NCBI GenBank assembly: GCA_020348945.1
Contig: CP070759.1
Span: forward strand, 1,172,074-1,204,612
Length of the DNA stretch: 32,539 nt
Source of the DNA: Candidatus Bathyarchaeota archaeon
Lineage (GTDB): Archaea > Thermoproteota > Bathyarchaeia > Bathyarchaeales > Bathyarchaeaceae
Reading direction: 5' to 3'
The notes under the pieces are model-generated. The model searched no databases. It saw nothing but the letters and a program-made list of their open reading frames with translations, and was not told the DNA's origin. Both the position numbers and the translations under genes were made by a program. This document shows, piece after piece, positions 11,685 to 29,276 of the stretch (positions are counted from its first letter, which is position 1; each line of letters begins with the position of its first letter).

Positions 11685-12785
11685 CTAAGTCAATAGTTTT
11701 TCAGGGTTTTCTAAAGCCGTTTTCACGTTCTGCAGAAAACGCGCAGCAGGTGCCCCGTCCACTACACGATGGTCAAAGGACAAACTCAGACGCATCACAG
11801 GCTTAACCATGATTTTCCCATCCGCCACCACTGGTTTTTCTACTACCCTTCCAACACCCAGTATCGCATTTTCAGGCGGATTAATAATGGGTGTGAACAT
11901 GTCCACCCCAAACATACCGAGATTAGTGATGGTGAAGGTTCCGCCGCTCATCTCTTCCCTCGTGAGCTTTCCCTCTCTAGCTTTTTCCACAAGTTCTTTC
12001 AGTTTCGAGGAGACTTCTTTGAACCCTCTCTTGTCCGCTTTACGTATTACTGGAACAACCAGTCCATTCTCGGTAGCAACGGCGACGCCAACATTGACAT
12101 CCTCAAAGATCTTAATTTGATCTTTTTCCAGCGTAGAGTTCATGACAGGATGTTCGGTCAAAGCCTTGGCAACAGCTTTAACTAACACATCAGTATAAGA
12201 AAACTTGAATTTTTCACGCAGCTTCGCAGCGTTAGACATGTCCACTTCCATGGTTATGGTAATATGTGGAGCTGTTTGAGCGCTTAGAGAAACACGTTCC
12301 GCCGCAGTTTTTCTTATTCCAGTTAGTGATATAACCTCTCTCACTCTCAGCTCTACTTTCGCTTTCTTAACATTTTTCCTTATGTCCTCTTCAACGATTC
12401 TTCCATCGGGACCCGTACCCTCCACTTGGGCTAAATCTATGCCATACTCTCTCGCCAGTCTCTTGGCTGCTGGGGAGGCTACGATGCGCTTCTCAACTTT
12501 TTCTACAGGTGCTTCAGCGGCAGCTTCAACATCTGAAAGTTCTTCATCTGGTGCAGTTATGATGGCAAGTGTTTCAGCAACCGGAACGTCAACTCCTTCC
12601 TCTGCCAAAATCTTGCGAATAACTCCAGCGGTGGGCGCTTCCACTTCGTATGTCACCTTGTCAGAGAGCACTTCTACCAAGGGCTCTCCCTTCTCTACCT
12701 TCTCTCCTTCCTTCTTGAACCATTGAACAACAGTTCCCTCCTTCATGGTTAGACTAAGCCTAGGCATCATGACATTAGTTACCAA
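11685..12785 (-). CDS. pdhC: 2-oxoacid/acetoin dehydrogenase complex E2, dihydrolipoamide acyltransferase
   Basis: Single lipoyl domain (SDKV), E3-binding ASPAAKRLA...GTGPDGRI, catalytic SFDHRVVDG. Substrate specificity (pdh vs aco) is unresolved. Confidence 0.88.
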   Translation of the reverse strand: MVTNVMMPRLSLTMKEGTVVQWFKKEGEKVEKGEPLVEVLSDKVTYEVEAPTAGVIRKILAEEGVDVPVAETLAIITAPDEELSDVEAAAEAPVEKVEKRIVASPAAKRLAREYGIDLAQVEGTGPDGRIVEEDIRKNVKKAKVELRVREVISLTGIRKTAAERVSLSAQTAPHITITMEVDMSNAAKLREKFKFSYTDVLVKAVAKALTEHPVMNSTLEKDQIKIFEDVNVGVAVATENGLVVPVIRKADKRGFKEVSSKLKELVEKAREGKLTREEMSGGTFTITNLGMFGVDMFTPIINPPENAILGVGRVVEKPVVADGKIMVKPVMRLSLSFDHRVVDGAPAARFLQNVKTALENPEKLLT

Positions 12786-12805
12786 CTTAAACCTCCTCTC
12801 CTAAG

Positions 12806-13783
12806 TTAATGGACAACTTCCTTTACTGCCCCTATTATCTTGTTCTCGTCAGGTATAACAAATTTCTCCAAGGGAGGGCTGAAGGGTATGGGAGTGTCTG
12901 GTTCCGCCACCCTCTTAACCGGAGCATCAAGATAATCAATAGCTTCCTCTGCAACCACCGCCGATATCTCCGCACTAACACCTCCCGTCTTGCAGTCTTC
13001 TGTAACAATCACGATTCGACCCGTTTTCTTAACGGATTTCACAATCGTCTCCTTGTCTAGGGGAACAAGCGTCCTCGGATCAATAACTTCTGCGCTGATT
13101 CCCTGTTTAATAAGCTCTTCAGCTGCGGCGAGCGACTTGTGAACCATGTATAGAGTGGCAACAATCGTAACGTCCTCTCCTTCCCTCTTCACGTCTGCAA
13201 CACCCAACGGAACAGTGTACTCTTCTTTTGGAACAAGCTCTTTAATTGAATAAAGAAGTTTATGTTCAAAAAACATCACTGGATTATCGTCTCGTATCGC
13301 TGTTTTCAGCAATCCCTTTGCATCATAAGGAGTCGAAGGCACCGCAACTTTCAAGCCTGGAACGTGTATGAACCAAGCCTCCAAGCTTTGAGAATGATGC
13401 GCTGCAATGTTAACTCCAGCGCCGAAGGGCATTCGGATCACCAGAGGCACTTTAGTTTGACCTCCAAACATGTATCTCAGCTTGGCTGCTTGATTCGCAA
13501 TCTGATCCATAGCGAGGGTGGAAAGGTCTCCGAACATGATCTCGGCGACAGGTCTCATGCCAGTTATAGCTGCTCCAGTGGCAACTCCTATGATGGCTGA
13601 CTCTGAGATAGGAGTGTCTTGAACTCTCTCATCCCCAAACTCTTCTGCCAGCCCCTTCGTCACCTTGAAGGCACCTTTCCAGTACCGCCCAACGTCTTCG
13701 CCCAACACGAAAACCGTTTCGTCTCGAAGCATCTCCTCCCTCAAAGCTTCACGAAGAGCATCTCGATAAGTTATCTCTCTCAA
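12806..13783 (-). CDS. pdhB: 2-oxoacid/acetoin dehydrogenase E1 beta subunit
   Basis: LGEDVG, DTPISE, PVAEIMF, HHSQSLE, EVIDPRTLVPLD. Confidence 0.9.
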   Translation of the reverse strand: MREITYRDALREALREEMLRDETVFVLGEDVGRYWKGAFKVTKGLAEEFGDERVQDTPISESAIIGVATGAAITGMRPVAEIMFGDLSTLAMDQIANQAAKLRYMFGGQTKVPLVIRMPFGAGVNIAAHHSQSLEAWFIHVPGLKVAVPSTPYDAKGLLKTAIRDDNPVMFFEHKLLYSIKELVPKEEYTVPLGVADVKREGEDVTIVATLYMVHKSLAAAEELIKQGISAEVIDPRTLVPLDKETIVKSVKKTGRIVIVTEDCKTGGVSAEISAVVAEEAIDYLDAPVKRVAEPDTPIPFSPPLEKFVIPDENKIIGAVKEVVH

Positions 13784-13796
13784 CTTTCAACATCTC

Positions 13797-14756
13797 CTAG
13801 ATATACACGTGTTCGAGGGCTTCCTCTGGTGCTGGAAACGGACTCTCTACAGCAAACTTAACCGCATCTTCAACAGCAGCAGCAACATCTTGCTCAATCT
13901 TGTCAGCCTCCTCCTCAGTCAAGGTCTTCATTTCAAGAAGCCTCGCCCTGAATCGTGTGATGGGGTCTCTCTTCATCCATTCCTCAACCTCCTCTTTTGG
14001 TCGGTAAGTGGCAGGATCAAAACGGGAGTGCCCCTTATGCCGGTACGTCTTACACTCAATCAACGTAGGTCCCTTTCCACTCCTCGCCCGCTCAACAGCC
14101 TCACATGCAGCTTCATACACTGCCATCACGTCATTTCCATCCACAACCACACCGGGAATACCGTATGCTACACCTCGATCCGCCACATTCTCTATCGCCA
14201 TAACTCTTGACTGACGGGTTCCCATGGCGTAAAGGTTGTTTTCACACACAAACAGAACTGGAAGCTTCCAAAGTGCCGCCATGTTAATTCCCTCGTGAAA
14301 CGTCCCCTGATTGGAGGCGCCCTCGCCGAAGAAGCACGCCACAACCTGGTCAGTTTTCCTCAGTCTGATGGACAGACCTGCACCAGCAGCAATGGGAAGT
14401 CCAGCCCCCACAACAGCAGTGGCGCCCAGCATGCCTACACTGAAGTTTGCAATGTGCATGGACCCTCCCTTGCCCTTGCAGTAGCCTGTTTTCTTGCCCA
14501 AAATCTCAGCCATCACCCTGTTCAGTTGGGCGCCTTTGGCTATGCAATGGCCGTGTCCTCGGTGAGTGCTCGTTATGTAGTCGTCTCTTCTAAGGTTGGC
14601 ACACACCCCAACCGCCACTGCTTCCTGTCCAGCGTAAAGGTGTATGGTTCCTGGGACAAGGTTCTGGCCGTACAAATCATAAACTTTCTCTTCAAAGTGC
14701 CGGATTTCCAGCAGCTTCCTGTACATTTCAATTTTTTTTCTTTTTTCCAGCGTCAA
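13797..14756 (-). CDS. pdhA: 2-oxoacid/acetoin dehydrogenase E1 alpha subunit (TPP-dependent)
   Basis: HLYAGQEA, STHRGHGH, GKGGSMH, TPP motif GEGA...CENN, TYRHKGHS; GAGGAGG SD. Confidence 0.9.
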   Translation of the reverse strand: MTLEKRKKIEMYRKLLEIRHFEEKVYDLYGQNLVPGTIHLYAGQEAVAVGVCANLRRDDYITSTHRGHGHCIAKGAQLNRVMAEILGKKTGYCKGKGGSMHIANFSVGMLGATAVVGAGLPIAAGAGLSIRLRKTDQVVACFFGEGASNQGTFHEGINMAALWKLPVLFVCENNLYAMGTRQSRVMAIENVADRGVAYGIPGVVVDGNDVMAVYEAACEAVERARSGKGPTLIECKTYRHKGHSRFDPATYRPKEEVEEWMKRDPITRFRARLLEMKTLTEEEADKIEQDVAAAVEDAVKFAVESPFPAPEEALEHVYI

Positions 14757-21071: not shown

Positions 21072-21512
21072 TTGAAGCGAGAATATCCTACACAGCCTGT
21101 TGCAAGCGTTGGAGCACTCATCGTGCACGAGGGAAAGCTCCTCATCGTAAAAAGAGGAGTGGAACCATCAAAGGGCAAATGGAGCATTCCAGGCGGAGCC
21201 GTTGAACTCGGCGAGAGGATTCGAGATGCGCTCCTTCGAGAGGTAAAGGAAGAATGCGGCTTAGACGTGGAAATAGCGTTGGAAAAACCCATGGACGCCA
21301 TCGAAAACATCACAATAAGCAAAGATGGACGCCTCCAGTATCACTACGTTTTGCTACAGTTTCTAGCTCGACTCAAAGGAGGAATCCTAAAACCCGCAAG
21401 CGACGCGCTGGATGCCAAATGGGTTCCTTTAGACGAAGTGGAAAAATACGACTTAACAAAATCTTTTCGTTCATTCTTCCAAAAGCATCAAGATGAACTG
21501 AGAAAAGTTTAG
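21072..21512 (+). CDS. NUDIX hydrolase (ADP-ribose pyrophosphatase-like)
   Basis: Nudix box GGAVELGERIRDALLREVKEECG; AGGAGG SD. Confidence 0.9.
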   Translation: MKREYPTQPVASVGALIVHEGKLLIVKRGVEPSKGKWSIPGGAVELGERIRDALLREVKEECGLDVEIALEKPMDAIENITISKDGRLQYHYVLLQFLARLKGGILKPASDALDAKWVPLDEVEKYDLTKSFRSFFQKHQDELRKV

Positions 21513-22963
21513 TTCTTTTCGGTGAAGAAAAGCCTCGTATGTCCCATCGCTTGAACGTCAAGGGCCTTCACCCTAACAACAACAGGAAAATCTTTCACCG
21601 CCCTTCCAAGAACAAGACAGTGGCGAGGCGGCAAATCTCGTGCGACAGACTTCACTGTTTCAGCGTCCACCTTCGCAGCTCGAGACACGACTTCAAGATC
21701 ATGTTCGTTAGTGAAGTTGAAGAGAAACACATTGTCGGCTTGACGGTAGATGTTTTCCCGTATGGTGTTGGGCTGATTTGTCACGAAAGTGGTGAAAACT
21801 CCGAAGTGTCTCATCCTAGTAACGATGTCGTCCCAGTAAGTTTCGCGGAGGTAAAGATGTGCCTCTTCAGCAAAGAGAAAGACAGCTTTTATTTTCCACT
21901 GAGTTAACATCTCAACAAGCTTTCCAAGCACGTATTCCACCGCGACCTGTCGGTCCACCAAAGAAATGTCGTGCAGGTTTATGACCAAGGCCCCGCCGTT
22001 TCGAATTTTACGAAAGTTTTCCTCAAGACCATTCGCATCTGCTGGATTATCGGTGAAAAAACGGGAGTTCAAAAGACTGTAATAGCGGGAGAAGAGGGCG
22101 TCCCGTACGTGAGTATTGCATTTCCAGTTTTTTATAGTCTCACCGAGCTCATGTAGAGTGAGGGTGCCTTGCTCTTGGAGGAAACGCCATATGCGTCGAA
22201 ACTCTCGAGCAGAGGTTCCTGGAAGGTGAAGAGCGTGGATAAGGATGTCCAGCATAACCCGCAATTTCATCTGGGGAAGTGTCATCTTAAGGTTGTCTCC
22301 TGGGGTGAGCGCTTGAATCTTGCTGAAATGTTCATTTTTTTCTCCATTCGAAGAGAAGCCTAGGTGGGTGTACTCACCGTTGAGGTCTAAAACAACCACC
22401 ATGGCTCCATGATCAATGAGTCCCATGACCAACAGCTTGGAGAGATGGGATTTCCCTGTTTCCTTCTTTCCAGTTACGATGTTCAGTCTTCCGTCTAGAG
22501 TCTGAGCGTCAATGTTGAACTGGGACAATTCCCTTGTCTCACCGAGCTGGATAGGAAGATCAGCGCTTATCTTTGCAAGGGTTAGGAGGGATGTTGTTGG
22601 AAGCTTTTTGATTGTGGACTGGGAACGAGAGGGAAGCCACGAGGCGGTTACCCTTAACTTTCCATCTTCCATGGTTCCGCGAATCTTGCAAACGAGCAAC
22701 CGTGAATCTTGGATATACGCCACATGGGAGATTACCCCTAACGGGTCAAAACTTTCCTCGTGAACAAGATCGTTAGTGGTGGAATTTCGCAGAAGCTCTT
22801 CTAAGATGCCGGGAACGTTGGCGAACTGGACGTCGATTACTTGAGTGATCAAGCTTCTACGAGTTGCAGGGTCTTCTATGAGGAGGTATTCTCCCTTCTC
22901 AACGTTCTCGGTTGGAAGAGCTAGAATTTGAACCGTGTTTCCCTCTTTTCTGTAAAGTCGCAT
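21509..22963 (-). CDS. herA: HerA/FtsK-family (DUF87) ATPase / DNA translocase
   Basis: Walker A GKKETGKS, DLNGEY, Walker B FLFAEEAH, RMRHFG, VTNQP; beta-rich N-terminus. Start MRLYRKEG at 22963, 2 nt after the nurA stop. Confidence 0.8.
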   Translation of the reverse strand: MRLYRKEGNTVQILALPTENVEKGEYLLIEDPATRRSLITQVIDVQFANVPGILEELLRNSTTNDLVHEESFDPLGVISHVAYIQDSRLLVCKIRGTMEDGKLRVTASWLPSRSQSTIKKLPTTSLLTLAKISADLPIQLGETRELSQFNIDAQTLDGRLNIVTGKKETGKSHLSKLLVMGLIDHGAMVVVLDLNGEYTHLGFSSNGEKNEHFSKIQALTPGDNLKMTLPQMKLRVMLDILIHALHLPGTSAREFRRIWRFLQEQGTLTLHELGETIKNWKCNTHVRDALFSRYYSLLNSRFFTDNPADANGLEENFRKIRNGGALVINLHDISLVDRQVAVEYVLGKLVEMLTQWKIKAVFLFAEEAHLYLRETYWDDIVTRMRHFGVFTTFVTNQPNTIRENIYRQADNVFLFNFTNEHDLEVVSRAAKVDAETVKSVARDLPPRHCLVLGRAVKDFPVVVRVKALDVQAMGHTRLFFTEKN

Positions 22964-22965
22964 CG

Positions 22966-24063
22966 CTAATCCTCTGAGCCCTTTCCGAAAAGTCCGAAAA
23001 GAAGTCGACGCACATTTGGCCGCGTAACCATTTTCAGCCCACATTTTTGAGCTATGAAGCGTTGAATGCCTATCACTTCGTTGGCGGTGAAAGTTGAAAA
23101 TATGTGAGCCAAACGTAAAGTTTCGGGATAACTCTGAAGAAACATGTCGTTCCCAAGAAGTCTCTGGACGGCTTCTAATCCATGTTCCCACGAAATCTCT
23201 CTGTCAATGTCCAACCGAAAAGAACAGCTTCCCTTGGTGAGCTTAGCCACAAAAATGTTTCCTAGAAGACACATTGTACCCGAAGTATGGGCAGGGAAAT
23301 CGTTGAATTTGAGCAGGTAAGGCGGTGAACACTTCCCCGATAGGTCAGTCAGTCGATGTCCGGAAAGCCTTAGGCGAGTGATCTTAGAGAACGCCAAGAC
23401 CGTGTTTAGGCGGTTTCTGGCGACTTTCAAGAGTTGAGAAACAACGTTCACTGGACTGTCTATTGTTCCAGCGGTCAGGGAGCCGTCCCAAAGGATGACG
23501 CTTCGATGTAGGGAACAACTGATACCCATCTGAAGCCACCGTTCAAGCAGATTGCACATTCGATTTTGCATGTTAATGAGGCTGGGAGTGTTAGTCTCTC
23601 CTGAACCTTTAAAACAGAATTGTCTGAGCATGCCGTAAATTTCCCGCTTATTTTCCTCTGTTATGTGGAATGGAAATGGCCCGATGCGGAGGCATCTGTA
23701 TCTCCTTTTTTCCCTCCAAACTACAGCTCCCCTCAAGGCGCACAACACTCCGGTTTCGGTTTCTCCAACTTTTATGCTGGAAACGTCCACGGCAACGACC
23801 GTAGTGTCATCGAGAAGGGGTTTCAAGGGTACAGATCGTAACGTGCAGGAGTTGTGATGTGGAAAAGCTAGTGTAATGTTTTCTGTGCTTTCTTTGGCGG
23901 GTTCGTAAGGTGTTATTTCGTTGGGCTGAAAATATTCTCCGTTGATTTTCTTCATGGATCTAAGGCTGAATTCGATGAACCGTTGTGGGAGTTGCAGGTC
24001 TTCGAGGGATTGTGGAAAATTATATTTTGGTGTTGTTGCATAATGTAATTGTTCAATCAACAA
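22966..24063 (-). CDS. nurA: NurA-family nuclease
   Basis: VAVDVSS, ILWDGSL, AFSK, FRLDI, YPETLRLAH; GGTGA SD; directly upstream of herA. Confidence 0.78.
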   Translation of the reverse strand: MLIEQLHYATTPKYNFPQSLEDLQLPQRFIEFSLRSMKKINGEYFQPNEITPYEPAKESTENITLAFPHHNSCTLRSVPLKPLLDDTTVVAVDVSSIKVGETETGVLCALRGAVVWREKRRYRCLRIGPFPFHITEENKREIYGMLRQFCFKGSGETNTPSLINMQNRMCNLLERWLQMGISCSLHRSVILWDGSLTAGTIDSPVNVVSQLLKVARNRLNTVLAFSKITRLRLSGHRLTDLSGKCSPPYLLKFNDFPAHTSGTMCLLGNIFVAKLTKGSCSFRLDIDREISWEHGLEAVQRLLGNDMFLQSYPETLRLAHIFSTFTANEVIGIQRFIAQKCGLKMVTRPNVRRLLFGLFGKGSED

Positions 24064-24097
24064 TATTCACCAATTTGCAGTTTATGGAGGTACTGAG

Positions 24098-24129
24098 TAT
24101 TTAAATATTGCGCATGAACAACATGTTCA
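24098..24129. promoter_or_regulatory. Divergent promoter: palindromic TATA plus inverted repeat
   Basis: TATTTAAATA (24098-24107) and TGAACA-ACA-TGTTCA (24115-24129) between nurA (-) and wHTH gene A (+). Confidence 0.55.
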
Positions 24130-24156
24130 ATACAATAAACAATAAGGGACACAAAC

Positions 24157-24567
24157 ATGTCAGAAGAACCAAAAACTCCAATCCGCCTCAAAATGAAAAT
24201 TGGAAACATGGAGTTCGAAATCGAATGCCGAGAAGACCAACTGGAAAAGACAGTTAAAAAAATCTTATCAACAGTCAAAGAGTACGCCAGAGAGCCAATA
24301 ATGATGCCAGAACGAAGATTGCCCCCCGCGAGAGGTGAAACCTGCAAGGGACTCATACAGAAACTTTGGTCAGAAGGCTGGTTCGCGTCTCCCCGAGGAC
24401 TCGGAGAAGTGCACAGTGAAATGGCACGAAGAGGCTACCACTACGACCGCACCGCAGTGGCACACGCCCTCATCGACTTGGTTAAAGATGGCCTACTAAC
24501 AAGAGAGGGAAGACCTCGCCGTTACCGTTACGCCCAGAAAAGACCTCCACTGACCAGTCAGGTTTGA
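24157..24567 (+). CDS. Winged-helix protein A (N-terminal beta-hairpin/helix plus C-terminal wHTH)
   Basis: IRLKMKIGNMEFEIEC...; PRGLGEVHSEMARRGYHYDRTAVAHALIDLVKDGLLTREG..RYRY. Paralogous to 25536..25949. Confidence 0.78.
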   Translation: MSEEPKTPIRLKMKIGNMEFEIECREDQLEKTVKKILSTVKEYAREPIMMPERRLPPARGETCKGLIQKLWSEGWFASPRGLGEVHSEMARRGYHYDRTAVAHALIDLVKDGLLTREGRPRRYRYAQKRPPLTSQV

Positions 24568-25064
24568 ATCTTTTCCCGAATTTTTAGCAGAATTCCTTCT
24601 TGTAAACGCTTAATCCCAATGGTAGTTATTTTATAATCGCCTTCATCGGTTTTTGTTGCCATTCCTTCCCGACAGAGTTCACTCAGTCGTGTGCTCGTGA
24701 TTTTGGAGCTTTTTCCAAGTCGTGTTTGCAGTTCTTCCTTGGAGAAAGAATTTCCGTTCAAGTGTCCAAGTTTATGGCCTATGTGAGCGGCTAAGAGATA
24801 TAGTTGGATGGTTTCGCTGTCCGTGAGCTTTTGTTTAGAGATGAGAATCTCGGGGCCTTCAGGAGCAATTGCAATGACGCCCTCAACGTTTTCGATGAGT
24901 TTTTGAAGGTCAACGGTGAGCATCACCTTGCGCGCTACATGAAAGGAAGGAATCATTTGGGTGAAGAAACGGTTGACGCTAACCCAAACATCATCTACAT
25001 TACCAACAAACGTTTGTTCAACATCCCTGTACTTAACCTGAACAGTTATCTTCTCTTCACTCAA
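24558..25064 (-). CDS. Winged-helix protein B
   Basis: ITVQVKYRDVEQTFVG...; EGPEIL...KLTDSETI...TRLSELCREGMATK...YKITTIG. Paralogous to 25066..25533. Confidence 0.75.
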   Translation of the reverse strand: MSEEKITVQVKYRDVEQTFVGNVDDVWVSVNRFFTQMIPSFHVARKVMLTVDLQKLIENVEGVIAIAPEGPEILISKQKLTDSETIQLYLLAAHIGHKLGHLNGNSFSKEELQTRLGKSSKITSTRLSELCREGMATKTDEGDYKITTIGIKRLQEGILLKIREKIQT

Positions 25065-25065
25065 C

Positions 25066-25533
25066 TCATTGCCCTCGAAGCTTAGCTAGCAGCTCTTCCT
25101 CAACCCACCTTTCGCCTTGTACAGTTAACTTGAACTCCGGTCTAGACGGGTCTGGTTTAAACACCATTCCCCGCTTGGTCATCTCGTTGAGACGTGCCGG
25201 CACCATAGATTTGATTCCGCTTGAACTGAGCAGTCGGCTGATTTTGGTAGCGGTGCTGACTTTTTCTTCAGAAGCATATAAGACCAGACCAATGGCTTCG
25301 TAGTGGGTTAGCTTTCCTCGAGTAGTTATTACTGGTCCTTCCGTGGTAAGTTCAACGATTCCCTCAAGCTGCGCTTTTATTGGTGGAGCAAGTTTTGTGG
25401 AAACTAGACTGCTTATTTCGCTCATAAACTGGGCGGGCATGGTTCTCAGCGTCTCAAGGATTTCTTGGGCGTTGTCTCCCTCCAAAACTATCTCGCCAAA
25501 AGGAGTTTTGATCTTCACCTGAATCTTTCCCAT
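25066..25533 (-). CDS. Winged-helix protein C
   Basis: IQVKIKTPFGEIVLEG...; EGPVIT...KLTHYEAI...ARLNEMTKRGMVFK...FKLTVQG. ATG 25533 follows AAGGAG. Confidence 0.75.
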   Translation of the reverse strand: MGKIQVKIKTPFGEIVLEGDNAQEILETLRTMPAQFMSEISSLVSTKLAPPIKAQLEGIVELTTEGPVITTRGKLTHYEAIGLVLYASEEKVSTATKISRLLSSSGIKSMVPARLNEMTKRGMVFKPDPSRPEFKLTVQGERWVEEELLAKLRGQ

Positions 25534-25535
25534 GT

Positions 25536-25949
25536 TTATGTCTCCTTTCCAGCCAAAGTGTATACGTAACCCTTTTTCGTTTTCCACCTTTTAATCCTGC
25601 CTTTCTTAACAAGCCACACGAGCACCCCGGAGAGGGTGGTAGCTGGATAGTGTGCCGTATTTGCCTTCATGGCTTCCACCAGTTCAGGCAGGGTTCTGGG
25701 CTGCTGTTTTCCCCAGTCTGTTTCAAGTAGCTTCAAAACTGTTTCACTGCAGTTCGCGGAAGACGATATGGTTGGATAGAGTGGGAGAGTAGATTGAGGC
25801 AGAGTTACGTTGATGTTGGCTGTATCAAAAGCTTTGGAAACGTTTGCCACCAGACTGGGAAGTTCCTCGATAGTTTTTATGACTTCCTCACGTGTTCCAC
25901 TAATCTCTATCTCATGACTGCCGAATTTAACACGAAGTGAAAATGGCAT
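25536..25949 (-). CDS. Winged-helix protein D
   Basis: LRVKFGSHEIEISG...; PRTLPELVEAMKANTAHYPATTLSGVLVWLVKKGRIKR...YVY. ATG 25949 follows GGAG. Confidence 0.75.
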   Translation of the reverse strand: MPFSLRVKFGSHEIEISGTREEVIKTIEELPSLVANVSKAFDTANINVTLPQSTLPLYPTISSSANCSETVLKLLETDWGKQQPRTLPELVEAMKANTAHYPATTLSGVLVWLVKKGRIKRWKTKKGYVYTLAGKET

Positions 25950-26041
25950 CCATTTTTTTCTCCATACTTCGAATATACTGCTGTCCTTTTTAGAATTTAC
26001 GACAAGTGTTAAATTTCTGATTCCAGTTGGTGCCAAGGTCG

Positions 26042-27940
26042 TTAAACGAGGTCTTTCAACTTTCTTTTCAATGTTTCGCTAACTGACTCAACCTTGACTC
26101 GTCCTCGGGTTCTCTTCATAACCATGCCCATGAGGGGCCCAAAAGCACCCTCTTTTCTCTCTTCTATCAAGCTTCTGTTTTCTCTTATCAAATCATCTAT
26201 TATTTTTTCCAGTTCCTCTTGTGAAATCATAGTCAACCCCAGACTTTTAACAGCCTCCTTCGCTGTAGCGTTCTCATTTTTCGACAGCCAAGTAATGCTG
26301 TCTGATATTGCTTCCTTAGCGGTTTCTCCGGCGTCCACAAGATGAAACAGCTCTTTCAACTGCTCATCACTAACCTTCTCCACTTCGATTCCATCGCGTC
26401 TCAAGGCCTTCATGGTCTCCGTTAACGCAACCGCTATGACAGTGGGAGAAACCTTGGTTTCCTGAGCCAGCGCTTCAAATAAATCCGTGTACTGTGAATT
26501 CAGAATTTGCCTCACCAGCTTAAGATTTAAACCGTACTCTTTTGTTAAGCGCTTCATCTTCTGCTCGGGCAACTCCGGAAGACAAGCGCGCAGATTTTCC
26601 ACATGATCTTCACTCAACTGGATTGGAGGAACATCAGTCTCCGGATACATTCGAGCAGCCCCAGGCCTCGGACGCATGTACCGGGTAGTCCCATCTAGGT
26701 TTGCCGCACGCGTTTCTTCAGGAACTCCCATCACCGCCTCTCTAGCTCTCTGCGTCACGACTTCAATGGCGTCGTTTGCGTTTTCCACACTATCCGCCAC
26801 GAATACAACAGCATCTTGGGGTTCCGCTTTCACAAGCTTCTTTAGATCTTCTGTTTCTTTGACGGTTACTCCATAGGCTGGAAGCTCATCCGTGTGAAAG
26901 ATTCCGCCTACCCTTCCCCAGAAACGAGCAATGTCTGCCATTTCCATTCCAAGCCTCATGCCAGGAGCTAGCTCCATCTTGAGTAGCCCAGCAAACATGG
27001 GCAGTTTGACCGCTAACACAAGCTGGTTTTGGCTGACTGCTTTTTGGATGACTCGACACTTTGTTTGCTTGAAAATGGGTGTAACGTCCACGAACTCGTC
27101 TTTGATGATCTTTTCTGTTACTCCGCGTTTTTTCAACTCAGCTTTTATCTTGAGGAGACCGAGCTGGCGCTGAACCTCATACTCGACAGCCTTCGAGACC
27201 AGTTCAAGCTGTTGAACTCCCTTAATTTCGGTTAGAGCTCCGTCTCGAATTGATATGTTCAGGTCTTGGCGAATGGTTCCTAGTCCTCGCCTAACCTTTC
27301 GTGTGGCTCTCATTACTCGCCCGATAGCTAGAGCGGTTTTTTCCGCTTCCTGAGGAGAATAGATGACTGGCGCTGTGGTGACCTCAATGAGGGGAATTCC
27401 GAGGCGGTCGATTCGATATCGAATGACAGAGTCTTTTTTCACCATTTTTCTAGCAGCGTCTTCTTCAAGACTTACGTGTTGTATGGGAACTTTTTTTCCT
27501 TCAATGTCCAGTTCTCCGTCAAGAGCAATGACGCATGTTCGCTGGAAGCCTGTGGTGTTCGATCCGTCTATAACGGTTTTGCGCATCACATGTATTTCAT
27601 CCACGGATTTGGCGTTCATCATGAGTGCAGCTGTGAGGGCGATTTCCACTGCTTCTCGATTAAGGTCGTGAGGGGGCTCCTCATCCATCTCTACGAGGCA
27701 CGAGGTTTCTCTGTTCGCTTCGTACAGTATTTTCACGCCTTTCTGAAACTCGAAGAAGGCTGCTGGATCAATTTGCCCCAACTCGCTCTGAGTAGGTCTT
27801 AGCCTCCTTAGAAACGTGATTTCTGATTCTTCTTTGAAGAGTTTAGGCTTGCAGGAGCAGAAGAGTTTTGTCTCTGTGTCGAGTTGCTGATGCACTTCAA
27901 GCCCGATTTTTAGTCCAACTTTTGGATAATTGATGTTCAT
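26042..27940 (-). CDS. gatE: Glutamyl-tRNA(Gln) amidotransferase subunit E
   Basis: KIGLEVHQQL, LRPTQSELG, RKTVIDGSNTTGFQRT, LEEDAAR, GTIRQDLN, RPRPGAARMYPETD. Confidence 0.96.
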   Translation of the reverse strand: MNINYPKVGLKIGLEVHQQLDTETKLFCSCKPKLFKEESEITFLRRLRPTQSELGQIDPAAFFEFQKGVKILYEANRETSCLVEMDEEPPHDLNREAVEIALTAALMMNAKSVDEIHVMRKTVIDGSNTTGFQRTCVIALDGELDIEGKKVPIQHVSLEEDAARKMVKKDSVIRYRIDRLGIPLIEVTTAPVIYSPQEAEKTALAIGRVMRATRKVRRGLGTIRQDLNISIRDGALTEIKGVQQLELVSKAVEYEVQRQLGLLKIKAELKKRGVTEKIIKDEFVDVTPIFKQTKCRVIQKAVSQNQLVLAVKLPMFAGLLKMELAPGMRLGMEMADIARFWGRVGGIFHTDELPAYGVTVKETEDLKKLVKAEPQDAVVFVADSVENANDAIEVVTQRAREAVMGVPEETRAANLDGTTRYMRPRPGAARMYPETDVPPIQLSEDHVENLRACLPELPEQKMKRLTKEYGLNLKLVRQILNSQYTDLFEALAQETKVSPTVIAVALTETMKALRRDGIEVEKVSDEQLKELFHLVDAGETAKEAISDSITWLSKNENATAKEAVKSLGLTMISQEELEKIIDDLIRENRSLIEERKEGAFGPLMGMVMKRTRGRVKVESVSETLKRKLKDLV

Positions 27941-27947
27941 TTGTTGT

Positions 27948-29276
27948 TTACTCCTCTTCTTCAGGAGTGGTTCTGGGCGAGATTTCGTGAGCTATGTTTG
28001 CGGTGAGAAGCTTTTTAACTTCTTCAACATCCTTGGTTTGTCCTAGGACCCACATGAGTTTCACTAGGGCGGTTTCGGGCAGCATGTCTTCAAGCGGGAT
28101 CACTCCCATTGCTAAAAGGTCTCGACCTGTGTCGTAAACGTTCATGCCTAAACGTCCCCAAATACACTGCGAGGTCATGGCGACAACCACATCGTTTTTA
28201 ACAGCCTTCCTAATCGCTGGGAAACAGTAGTTGCTCACGTGGCCAAGTCCTGTTCCCTCGAGGACAATGCCCCTGTAACCTTCTTCAATGTGCCACTCGA
28301 GGATTTTAGGATTTAAACCTAGATGAAACTTGACTAGCGCCACTTTTTCATCAAAGTCTGGTTTCAGAACCAGTTTTCGTGAGGAGTCACGCTGACAATA
28401 ATCATCCACCAACATGGTGATCTTCTCGTTTTCTATCCTAGCGAGCGGTGAGGTGTTCACGGATTGAAAAGTGTCCCGTCGACTCGTGTGACATTTTCTA
28501 ACCTTAGTTCCCCGATGGAACACGATGGAAGCGTCCGAAATCGTTTCGTGCATAGCTAAGACCACCTCGGCAAAGGGAGCCCACGCAGCCGCCCTTACAG
28601 CACCTATCAGGTTGGTTGCAGCATCTGAACTAGGGCGGTCAGCGGATCGTTGGGAACCCACCATTATCACAGGCACTGGCAGATTTTGAAGTGTGAAGCT
28701 TAAGGCGGCTGAGGTGTATGCCATGGTGTCGGTTCCATGGGGTACCACGACTCCTGCTGCGCCTTTTTGGATGTGTTTGGCGACGGTTTTGGCTGTTTCT
28801 GACCAGTGCTTCGCTGTGATGTTTTCGCTGTAAAGGCTGAAAAGAATCTGTGCGTCTATTGTGGCGACTTCTGAGAGTTCCGGAACAACGCTGTAGAGGT
28901 CGCTTGCGGAGAGGGCGGAGCGTACTCCTCCTGTTCGGTAGTCCACTCGGCTGGCGATGGTGCCTCCGGTGCTGATGATTGCCACTTTAGGTAATTCTGG
29001 TTTTTGTTTTGGAAGCGGTGGCGGTGTGAAAGTGGGTTTGGCTCCTACTCCGATTTTTTCGATTTGTGTGTTGAGGGTGATGTTGATTCCTATGTTGTAG
29101 CCGCTTTTCATCTTAATTACAACGTGCTTTTCATCGCCATATTCGGATCTGGGAATGAGGATGCCCTCGTAGGTTTTCGCGTCTTTCGTGATGCGGATAA
29201 GGTCGCCGATTTCAGCTCCAGCTTTCCTCAGAACTTGTAATGCTTTTCCTTTATATCCTGGAAAACCTTCGCTCAA
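27948..29276 (-). CDS. gatD: Glutamyl-tRNA(Gln) amidotransferase subunit D
   Basis: KMKSGYNIG, STGGTIASRVDYRTG, HGTDTM, GSQRSADRPSSD, RKCHTSRRD; adjacent to gatE. Confidence 0.96.
   Translation of the reverse strand: MSEGFPGYKGKALQVLRKAGAEIGDLIRITKDAKTYEGILIPRSEYGDEKHVVIKMKSGYNIGINITLNTQIEKIGVGAKPTFTPPPLPKQKPELPKVAIISTGGTIASRVDYRTGGVRSALSASDLYSVVPELSEVATIDAQILFSLYSENITAKHWSETAKTVAKHIQKGAAGVVVPHGTDTMAYTSAALSFTLQNLPVPVIMVGSQRSADRPSSDAATNLIGAVRAAAWAPFAEVVLAMHETISDASIVFHRGTKVRKCHTSRRDTFQSVNTSPLARIENEKITMLVDDYCQRDSSRKLVLKPDFDEKVALVKFHLGLNPKILEWHIEEGYRGIVLEGTGLGHVSNYCFPAIRKAVKNDVVVAMTSQCIWGRLGMNVYDTGRDLLAMGVIPLEDMLPETALVKLMWVLGQTKDVEEVKKLLTANIAHEISPRTTPEEEE

Follow-up and report, generated by a model that had tools for sequence, protein, structure and literature searches.

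Small paralogous winged-helix proteins encoded beside nurA-herA in Bathyarchaeia and other Thermoproteota

The nuclease NurA and the translocase HerA form the core DNA end-resection machine of archaea, and, to our knowledge, its regulation and its recruitment to DNA are known for only a few thermophiles. Described DNA-binding proteins with which the present locus can be compared include (i) FtsK gamma, a winged helix (wH) that reads short DNA words (KOPS) and loads and orients a motor of the FtsK-HerA superfamily; (ii) AspA, a centromere-binding protein of the Sulfolobus plasmid pNOB8 that acts as a DNA-bound adaptor recruiting a partition protein; and (iii) Lsr2, the mycobacterial nucleoid-bridging protein, in which an N-terminal hairpin and helix form an oligomerisation domain that is followed by a linker and a C-terminal DNA-binding domain. 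Here we describe four adjacent genes, A, B, C, and D, that encode small wH proteins next to nurA and a herA-like gene in an archaeal genome consisting of a single 1.72-Mb contig, the nearest relatives of which are annotated as Candidatus Bathyarchaeota or Bathyarchaeia. The analysis covers a stretch of 32,539 nucleotides of this contig, referred to below as the window.

A, B, C, and D are paralogs in an unnamed Thermoproteota family of small wH proteins tied to the nurA-herA module; their paralogy, their fold, their linkage to nurA-herA, and the conservation of their promoter motifs are established below. We give about even weight to the reading that they constitute a dedicated set of wH regulators or adaptors of the NurA-HerA end-resection module. 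A first-pass annotation, made from the sequence alone, had placed four winged helix-turn-helix (wHTH) genes at 24157-25949, and this holds: the open reading frames (ORFs) lie there, with the wH given by structure models for A and B and by homology for C and D. The four genes are as follows.

24157-24567, plus strand: gene A, ORF of 136 amino acids
24558-25064, minus strand: gene B, ORF of 168 amino acids with a TTG start
25066-25533, minus strand: gene C, 155 amino acids from the ATG used by orthologs
25536-25949, minus strand: gene D, 137 amino acids from the ATG used by orthologs, with a conserved promoter motif upstream

The ORF list gives longer versions of C and D that are extended upstream; the starts given here were chosen because of the orthologs and the conserved promoter. 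D, C, and B are packed 1-2 nucleotides apart, the C start lying 2 nucleotides past the D stop, and A, on the opposite strand, converges on B such that their 3′ ends overlap by 10 nucleotides. A TTG start for B is seen in the window and in the majority of the orthologs inspected, ATG being the usual start of A, C, and D; the TTG start may lower the translation rate of B within the D-C-B unit.

The paralogy follows a 2+2 pattern, as the first-pass annotation had proposed. In BLASTP, A matches D (E 4e-12; 27% identity over ∼130 amino acids) and B matches C (E 2e-9); A and B share chance-level fragments only (best E 2.0), and C and D give no match at E ≤ 100. Alignment of full-length family profiles with hhalign pairs A with D at 98.6% and B with C at 97.8%, and further links A to B across their full length (91.4%, E 9e-7), with D-B at 48%, D-C at 33% (N terminus only), and A-C at 0.8%. 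The N-terminal regions were compared separately, by cutting the four family alignments to their first 42-48 residues and aligning them locally with hhalign against reversed targets as controls. These cut profiles scored 95.6% for A-D, 95.1% for A-B, 90.5% for D-C, and 85.7% for D-B, with B-C at 29% and A-C at 11%, versus at most 3.1% for the reversed controls. Moreover, when 35 N termini drawn from all four families are aligned together, hardly a gap appears in the hairpin or the beginning of the helix. Judged by these alignments, the N-terminal hairpin-helix modules of A, B, C, and D are homologous, above chance, in agreement with the shared module that had been suspected earlier. Acidic N-terminal modules contrast with basic wH halves, the isoelectric points of which are 9.5-10.2. 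The alignment of the gene A family contains 25 invariant columns over Bathyarchaeia and Nitrososphaeria, mostly in the wH, and that of the gene C family has a mean column identity of 74%.

AlphaFold2 models were built for A and B from family alignments, and the layout of C and D is assigned by homology to them. The A model (mean predicted local distance difference test score, pLDDT, 72.5) has strands at residues 9-15 and 18-24, a helix at 26-45, a linker at 45-58 with pLDDT below 50, and a wH at 63-127. The B model (mean pLDDT 84.5) has strands at 6-12 and 15-21, a helix at 23-47, an additional helix and hairpin at 53-73, and, in its C-terminal half, a wH at 82-146 followed by a helix at 148-167. 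Both models have the wHTH superfamily fold, a bundle of three helices with a beta-hairpin as its wing. A and B are thus predicted to consist of a hairpin-helix module, a linker, and a basic wH, the order that had been read from the sequence beforehand, and C and D, by homology, would share it.

The wH halves resemble known regulators in a generic way. In VIA-align, residues 74-168 of B match MarR/PadR/ArsR-type regulators at Z ∼10 (up to 10.2; root-mean-square deviation, rmsd, 1.8-3), and residues 58-133 of A match Fur/BlaI/PadR types at Z 8-10, with Fur-family domains at 9-9.8 and linker-histone globular and Z-alpha domains at 7.8-8.9. The best row for the A wH is entry 2mh2 (Z 10.0, rmsd 1.8, 64 residues), which we take to be the Hop2 wH domain. 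The matches of each protein are essentially tied and therefore identify a generic wH only; all of them are confined to the wH halves, none reaching the N-terminal module. Foldseek returned no match at E ≤ 0.001 for either model; its best hit for B was AspA (4rs8; E 7e-3, target TM score 0.76, 91 columns; VIA-align Z 8.9), which does not rise above the other wH rows and is accompanied by no Pfam PadR match. A PDB profile search with the B/C type gave weak matches, the best being CooA (E 7e-4 over 43 residues), and that with the A profile gave nothing meaningful. In the PDB, matches to the profile of the N-terminal module were confined to designed proteins and helices of low complexity, and neither Lsr2 nor ZapA was among the chains listed. 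A complex prediction of full-length A, D, B, and C, with A as partner, gave an ipSAE of 0.00 in both runs and, having been run without controls, counts neither way.

Searches of curated families place none of the four proteins in a named regulator family. No score of A, B, C, or D reaches a curated Pfam or NCBIfam cut-off, and all wH-family matches are sub-threshold. Against the Pfam Penicillinase_R (BlaI/MecI) cut-off of 22.6 bits, A scores 15.3 and D 18.7, with no match for B or C; the NCBIfam BlaI score is 13.7 bits versus a cut-off of 180; B scores 19.5 bits against the Pfam HVO_A0261_N cut-off of 35; and C has no wH-family match at E ≤ 1. None of the four matches Pfam Lsr2 at E ≤ 1. The ESM Atlas returned only clusters of hypothetical proteins, besides wH Pfam labels of low share on a few rows.

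The genomic context ties these genes to nurA and herA. A is divergent from nurA across a 93-bp spacer, and a gene for a HerA-like ATPase lies behind nurA.

22966-24063, minus strand: NurA nuclease gene, divergent from A (Pfam NurA)
21509-22963, minus strand: HerA-like ATPase gene, 3′ of nurA (Pfam DUF87/HerA central domain, E 2.7e-10)

The window protein scores 19.8 bits with Pfam NurA against a cut-off of 21, and scores above the cut-off in a genome search, in which it is the sole NurA found. The listed herA ORF reaches 23191 and overlaps nurA by 226 nucleotides; because of this ORF listing and the ranges over which orthologs match, the true start is likely an in-frame ATG at ∼22963, just past the nurA stop, the first ∼76 residues then probably being an extension.

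Among 67 loci found with A, 58 were informative, having an upstream flank of at least 700 nucleotides, and in 56 of these, from Bathyarchaeia and Nitrososphaeria, nurA lies head-to-head with A within 600 nucleotides, with herA behind nurA. A further 18 loci, from other families of the phylum, were anchored on B-family matches. NurA and HerA both lie beside the wH genes in 11 of the 18; 6 have a HerA-like gene two genes off, and the remaining one is a 4.7-kb contig with neither NurA nor HerA. An ORF of ∼355-412 amino acids separates the wH gene from the HerA-like gene in L089, L092, L093, L098, L099, and L102; its identity as NurA was not confirmed in the single ORF compared, that of L093 (hhalign 7.6%). 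In seven loci (L085, L086, L087, L088, L091, L100, and L101), 2-4 wH genes immediately precede nurA-herA and run in the same direction, usually with abutting or overlapping ends. The row in L101 consists of gatD and gatE, then three wH genes of the B/C type and one of the A/D type, and finally nurA and herA; L087 repeats this order from gatE on, with two B/C-type genes. The B/C type appears to be the older and most widespread member of the family, and it heads the nurA-herA operon in other lineages.

In the best-studied thermophiles, herA, mre11, rad50, and nurA form one operon, according to two papers (PMC13748450, PMC9905601), and an order NurA-HerA-Mre11 is given for two Nitrososphaera-related metagenome-assembled genomes in a report whose accessible part mentions no wH neighbours (PMC13707971). 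The window genome has a Rad50 zinc-hook gene near 0.95 Mb and nurA-herA near 1.19 Mb; a canonical herA-mre11-rad50-nurA operon was not found in it, Mre11 itself not having been searched for. Because rad50 lies ∼240 kb away, nurA-herA is here separate from rad50 and linked to the wH genes instead.

The family is large and carries few names. Of 1833 database candidates retrieved with A, 1828 are relatives at E ≤ 1e-3, as are 770 of 822 retrieved with B; where the matches listed for both have a name, it is almost always 'hypothetical protein'. Identity is 72-93% among the 120 matches listed. When 301 genomes sampled evenly from the phylum were searched, 91 contained a match to the A profile and 126 one to the B profile; from a library of 1.84 billion proteins, the B profile retrieves 634 clusters at 50% identity. 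Between Bathyarchaeia and Nitrososphaeria, A retains 45-50% identity, a second figure for A between classes being 46%, with a nearly invariant wH that includes the recognition helix and the wing. The paralog set varies, and the 2+2 set of the window is one variant: some Nitrososphaeria loci have A with one B-like and one D-like gene, others have A with two or three B/C-like genes, and some families have two B-like genes only.

Members of the B family also occur within longer proteins. The B-family module is fused to a Ser/Thr protein kinase domain in P0247, which has two B-like repeats, and to DUF488 in P0364; these fusions fit a portable DNA-targeting or regulatory module. Two other proteins, P0282 and P0303, combine the B-family module with an unassigned N-terminal domain of ∼200 amino acids in which a PD...E.K-like motif was noted by eye. 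Among longer proteins, none was seen to contain A in fused form, which is weak evidence. A 334-residue ORF elsewhere in the window genome (G000:C1:274807-275811, plus strand) has two stretches weakly similar to the A/D wH (E ∼2e-4 with local profiles) and, on this similarity, may encode a tandem-wH protein.

The promoters of these loci contain conserved motifs that differ with the paralog type encoded. The elements located in the window are the following.

24064-24156, no strand assigned: bidirectional nurA/A promoter region, 93 bp
24098-24107, in the nurA/A spacer: palindromic TATA box
24108-24115, in the nurA/A spacer: TTGCGCAT
24116-24128, in the nurA/A spacer: inverted repeat
24124-24131, in the nurA/A spacer: TGTTCAAT
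24132-24148, in the nurA/A spacer: conserved leader
25985-26000, minus strand: TATA/BRE-like promoter motif of the D-C-B unit (BRE, B recognition element)

The nurA/A spacer is kept almost base for base in Bathyarchaeia loci, and in Nitrososphaeria TTGCGCAA palindromes stand at the same place in the A promoter. Conserved TGNNCAA repeats lie between the TATA box and the start codon of A. The motif TGNNCAA occurs in all 59 A promoters (84 occurrences versus a shuffled mean of 6.5 and maximum of 12), and in five of six additional A promoters from other families; ACGT was found in none of the 59. Conversely, promoters of operons headed by B/C-type genes contain ACGT 22 times in nine of nine (shuffled mean 2.3), with TACGTA or AACGTT 10 times in six of the nine, and TGNNCAA in none; all these counts are descriptive, the loci being kin. 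The motif class thus follows the paralog type encoded, as autoregulation predicts. In Bathyarchaeia, the motif of the D-C-B unit is kept 5′ of D and, in loci lacking D, 5′ of C; it is not kept in the D upstream regions of Nitrososphaeria. The A-type arrangement is local in the window genome: a TATA box with TTGNNCA[AT] occurs at 49 sites versus 60-74 in shuffled sequences and is therefore not enriched, and requiring a second half-site leaves the A promoter and one unrelated site. The sequence TTGYGCATG occurs 35 times over both strands, and no occurrence stands in a promoter-like context resembling that of A.

Around these elements, gatD and gatE lie 5′ of D on the same strand (window positions 26042-29276), and the gene 3′ of herA encodes a SIS-domain protein. 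Both in the window and in L026, L032, L087, L094, L096, and L101, the gatD-gatE pair immediately precedes the wH cluster in the same orientation; this gene order is deeply conserved in Bathyarchaeia and Nitrososphaeria, with no obvious functional reason. Farther off, window positions 11685-14756 (minus strand) encode all parts of a 2-oxoacid dehydrogenase, namely E1 alpha, E1 beta, and an E2 that has lipoyl and E3-binding domains; this set is unrelated to the wH genes.

A fifth protein of similar architecture, E, is encoded outside the window (145 amino acids; G000:C1:350545-350982, minus strand, corresponding to L106:9546-9983). Inspected by eye, it begins with a hairpin-like segment, followed by a helix, a linker, and a wH of the BlaI type; its Pfam Penicillinase_R score, 20.1 bits, is sub-threshold, and no homology to A, D, or B could be detected. 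In this genome its gene is divergent from orc1/cdc6 and lies near the PolD small-subunit gene; behind it come a gene for a NurA-like protein, which reaches 86% in hhalign against the NurA alignment, and a second gene of the HerA type. Of 81 genomes sampled from the class, 46 yielded E. Among 14 further Bathyarchaeia loci, it neighbours orc1/cdc6 in 13 and a NurA-like/HerA-like pair in 4. We therefore rejected E as a second wH-NurA-HerA module, given the linkage of 4/14 to the pair versus 13/14 to orc1/cdc6 and the lack of homology to A, D, or B; E may instead be an origin-associated wH protein.

If A-D are a dedicated regulator or adaptor set, their N-terminal module would be the oligomerisation surface, which we infer from its conservation and small size, and the proteins would bind DNA as homo- or heterodimers, most naturally as pairs of the A/D type and of the B/C type. 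A would read the TGNNCAA repeats in the nurA/A promoter and thereby control both its own gene and nurA-herA. The B/C type would bind its own class of site, namely ACGT palindromes in the lineages where it heads the nurA-herA operon, and would serve as a co-regulator and/or a DNA-targeting adaptor of NurA-HerA. The genomic linkage, the motifs that track paralog type, the conservation, the regulator-like fold, the charge of the domains, the locality of the A motif, and the B-family fusions all argue for a dedicated set.

Several observations weigh against it. Two to four paralogs exceed the normal regulatory need of one operon and point to a structural role as well. In ∼20 Bathyarchaeia loci A stands alone by nurA-herA, with B, C, and D elsewhere, and in the window D-C-B has a promoter of its own, which carries neither A-type repeats nor clear ACGT palindromes. 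Part of the conserved TATA-adjacent sequence could be a BRE or a leader element rather than an operator. Because the compared loci are kin, the motif counts overstate independence, and since gatD-gatE has kept its place as well, part of the gene order merely reflects ancestry. The Pfam wH matches, finally, are all under curated cut-offs. Paralog number and tight operonic coupling together leave room for a structural role, in which the proteins would be loader or DNA-recognition subunits.

In that structural alternative, which we consider possible but rather unlikely, the paralogs would hetero-oligomerise through their N-terminal modules and dock on the NurA dimer or the HerA hexamer as the resection machine's DNA-recognition or loading part, complementing or replacing an operon-encoded Mre11-Rad50, with transcriptional effects being secondary. 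It would suit the presence, in distant families, of 2-4 paralogs encoded alongside nurA-herA by genes that mostly abut or overlap, their very high sequence conservation, the separation of nurA-herA from rad50 here, unlike in the one-operon thermophiles, the resemblance of B to AspA, an adaptor on DNA, and the fusion of B-family members to enzymes. However, promoter motifs that track the paralogs favour the behaviour of a sequence-specific regulator, B, C, and D lie away from nurA-herA in many genomes, and the lack of any fusion found for A counts, weakly, in the same direction. A more specific form, which we regard as unlikely, is that a hetero-oligomeric sequence-reading subcomplex physically loads or orients HerA and NurA on DNA and is ancestral to Bathyarchaeia, Nitrososphaeria, and several other Thermoproteota lineages.

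Two other explanations appear to us improbable. The first-pass annotation had suggested a possible hetero-oligomeric chromatin or silencing complex, which would be an abundant nucleoid-bridging assembly like Lsr2 or Rok with oligomerisation through the N-terminal module and low-specificity wH binding. The order of N-terminal module, linker, and DNA-binding domain that inspired it is real, the wH halves are basic, linker-histone and Z-alpha domains are among the structural matches of A, and the family is strongly conserved and widespread; nevertheless, the genes are tied to one enzyme operon rather than free-standing, their promoters suggest recognition of specific sites, and the genome already encodes one histone and three Alba proteins. 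A chromatin role is not supported: promoter repeats specific to the paralog type are typical of dedicated, autoregulated DNA-binding proteins, the motif combination of A shows no genome-wide enrichment, no Pfam Lsr2 match was seen, and the TTG start of B in most orthologs examined gives no sign of very high expression, which is a weak argument. Locus-bound genes, promoters that imply specific recognition, and the resident histone and Alba proteins make nucleoid bridging the least supported explanation. It is similarly improbable that A-D are four ordinary, functionally unrelated small transcription factors whose linkage to nurA-herA and gatDE is a frozen ancestral order. Generic wH folds and the equally retained gatD-gatE synteny, which has no obvious functional link, are what this explanation expects, as is protein E, whose similar architecture is found mainly beside orc1/cdc6 and only in a minority of loci beside a NurA-like/HerA-like pair. 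Yet the linkage to nurA-herA survives inversions (divergent versus co-directional lineages), changes in paralog number, and class- and family-level distances, which is rare for neutral synteny. A dedicated wH set of the NurA-HerA module remains the most economical reading.

An unnamed wH family is, then, a constant genomic companion of nurA-herA in two very abundant lineages, Bathyarchaeia and the ammonia-oxidising Nitrososphaeria. A search of the full-text literature, its scope excluding subscription-only papers and supplementary files, found no description of wH partners of NurA-HerA, and the word 'winged' is absent from the accessible part of a 2026 NurA review (PMC13748450). If the dedicated-set reading is correct, these proteins would give mesophilic Thermoproteota, ammonia oxidisers among them, their first candidates for a regulator or partner of NurA-HerA, and the locus would offer a new small oligomerisation module together with a pair of conserved cis-elements open to direct gel-shift testing.

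Compared with known systems, the A-D family is closest in its DNA-binding half to the MarR, PadR, BlaI, and Fur regulators, with which it shares the wHTH fold and the presence of palindromic or repeated motifs by the TATA box of its own promoters. Unlike these regulators, A-D have a hairpin-helix module on a flexible linker in place of the dimerisation elements of those families, occur in sets of 2-4 paralogs tied to nurA-herA, and score below curated cut-offs. AspA (PDB 4rs8, 5k5q, 5k5o) resembles B in having a wH followed by a C-terminal helix, and B would share with it the role of a small archaeal DNA-binding protein that works alongside an ATPase-driven DNA machine. B differs from it by ∼75 extra N-terminal residues, an identity of 24-25%, and a chromosomal nurA-herA context in place of parA-parB, and the AspA match is not set apart from dozens of MarR/PadR rows.

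The predicted N-terminal secondary-structure order of A and B is the same as that of Lsr2. The C-terminal domain, however, is a wH in A-D and an AT-hook-like domain in Lsr2, no sequence relation was seen, and the context of A-D points to a dedicated, locus-specific role. Hop2-Mnd1, an accessory heterodimer of eukaryotic recombination, offers another likeness, namely paralogous wH proteins attached to a recombination pathway, and presumably supplies the best structural row of the A wH, 2mh2. Its wH is N-terminal and followed by coiled coils, which is the reverse of the order in A-D, the Z score of 2mh2 is tied with those of Fur-family rows, and there is no sequence evidence for kinship. FtsK gamma, lastly, provides a functional analogy for a wH that serves HerA; whereas FtsK gamma is fused to its motor, A-D are separate polypeptides. 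By this analogy, a loader subcomplex formed by A-D would be a trans-acting counterpart of FtsK gamma, or a stand-in for the operon-encoded Mre11-Rad50.

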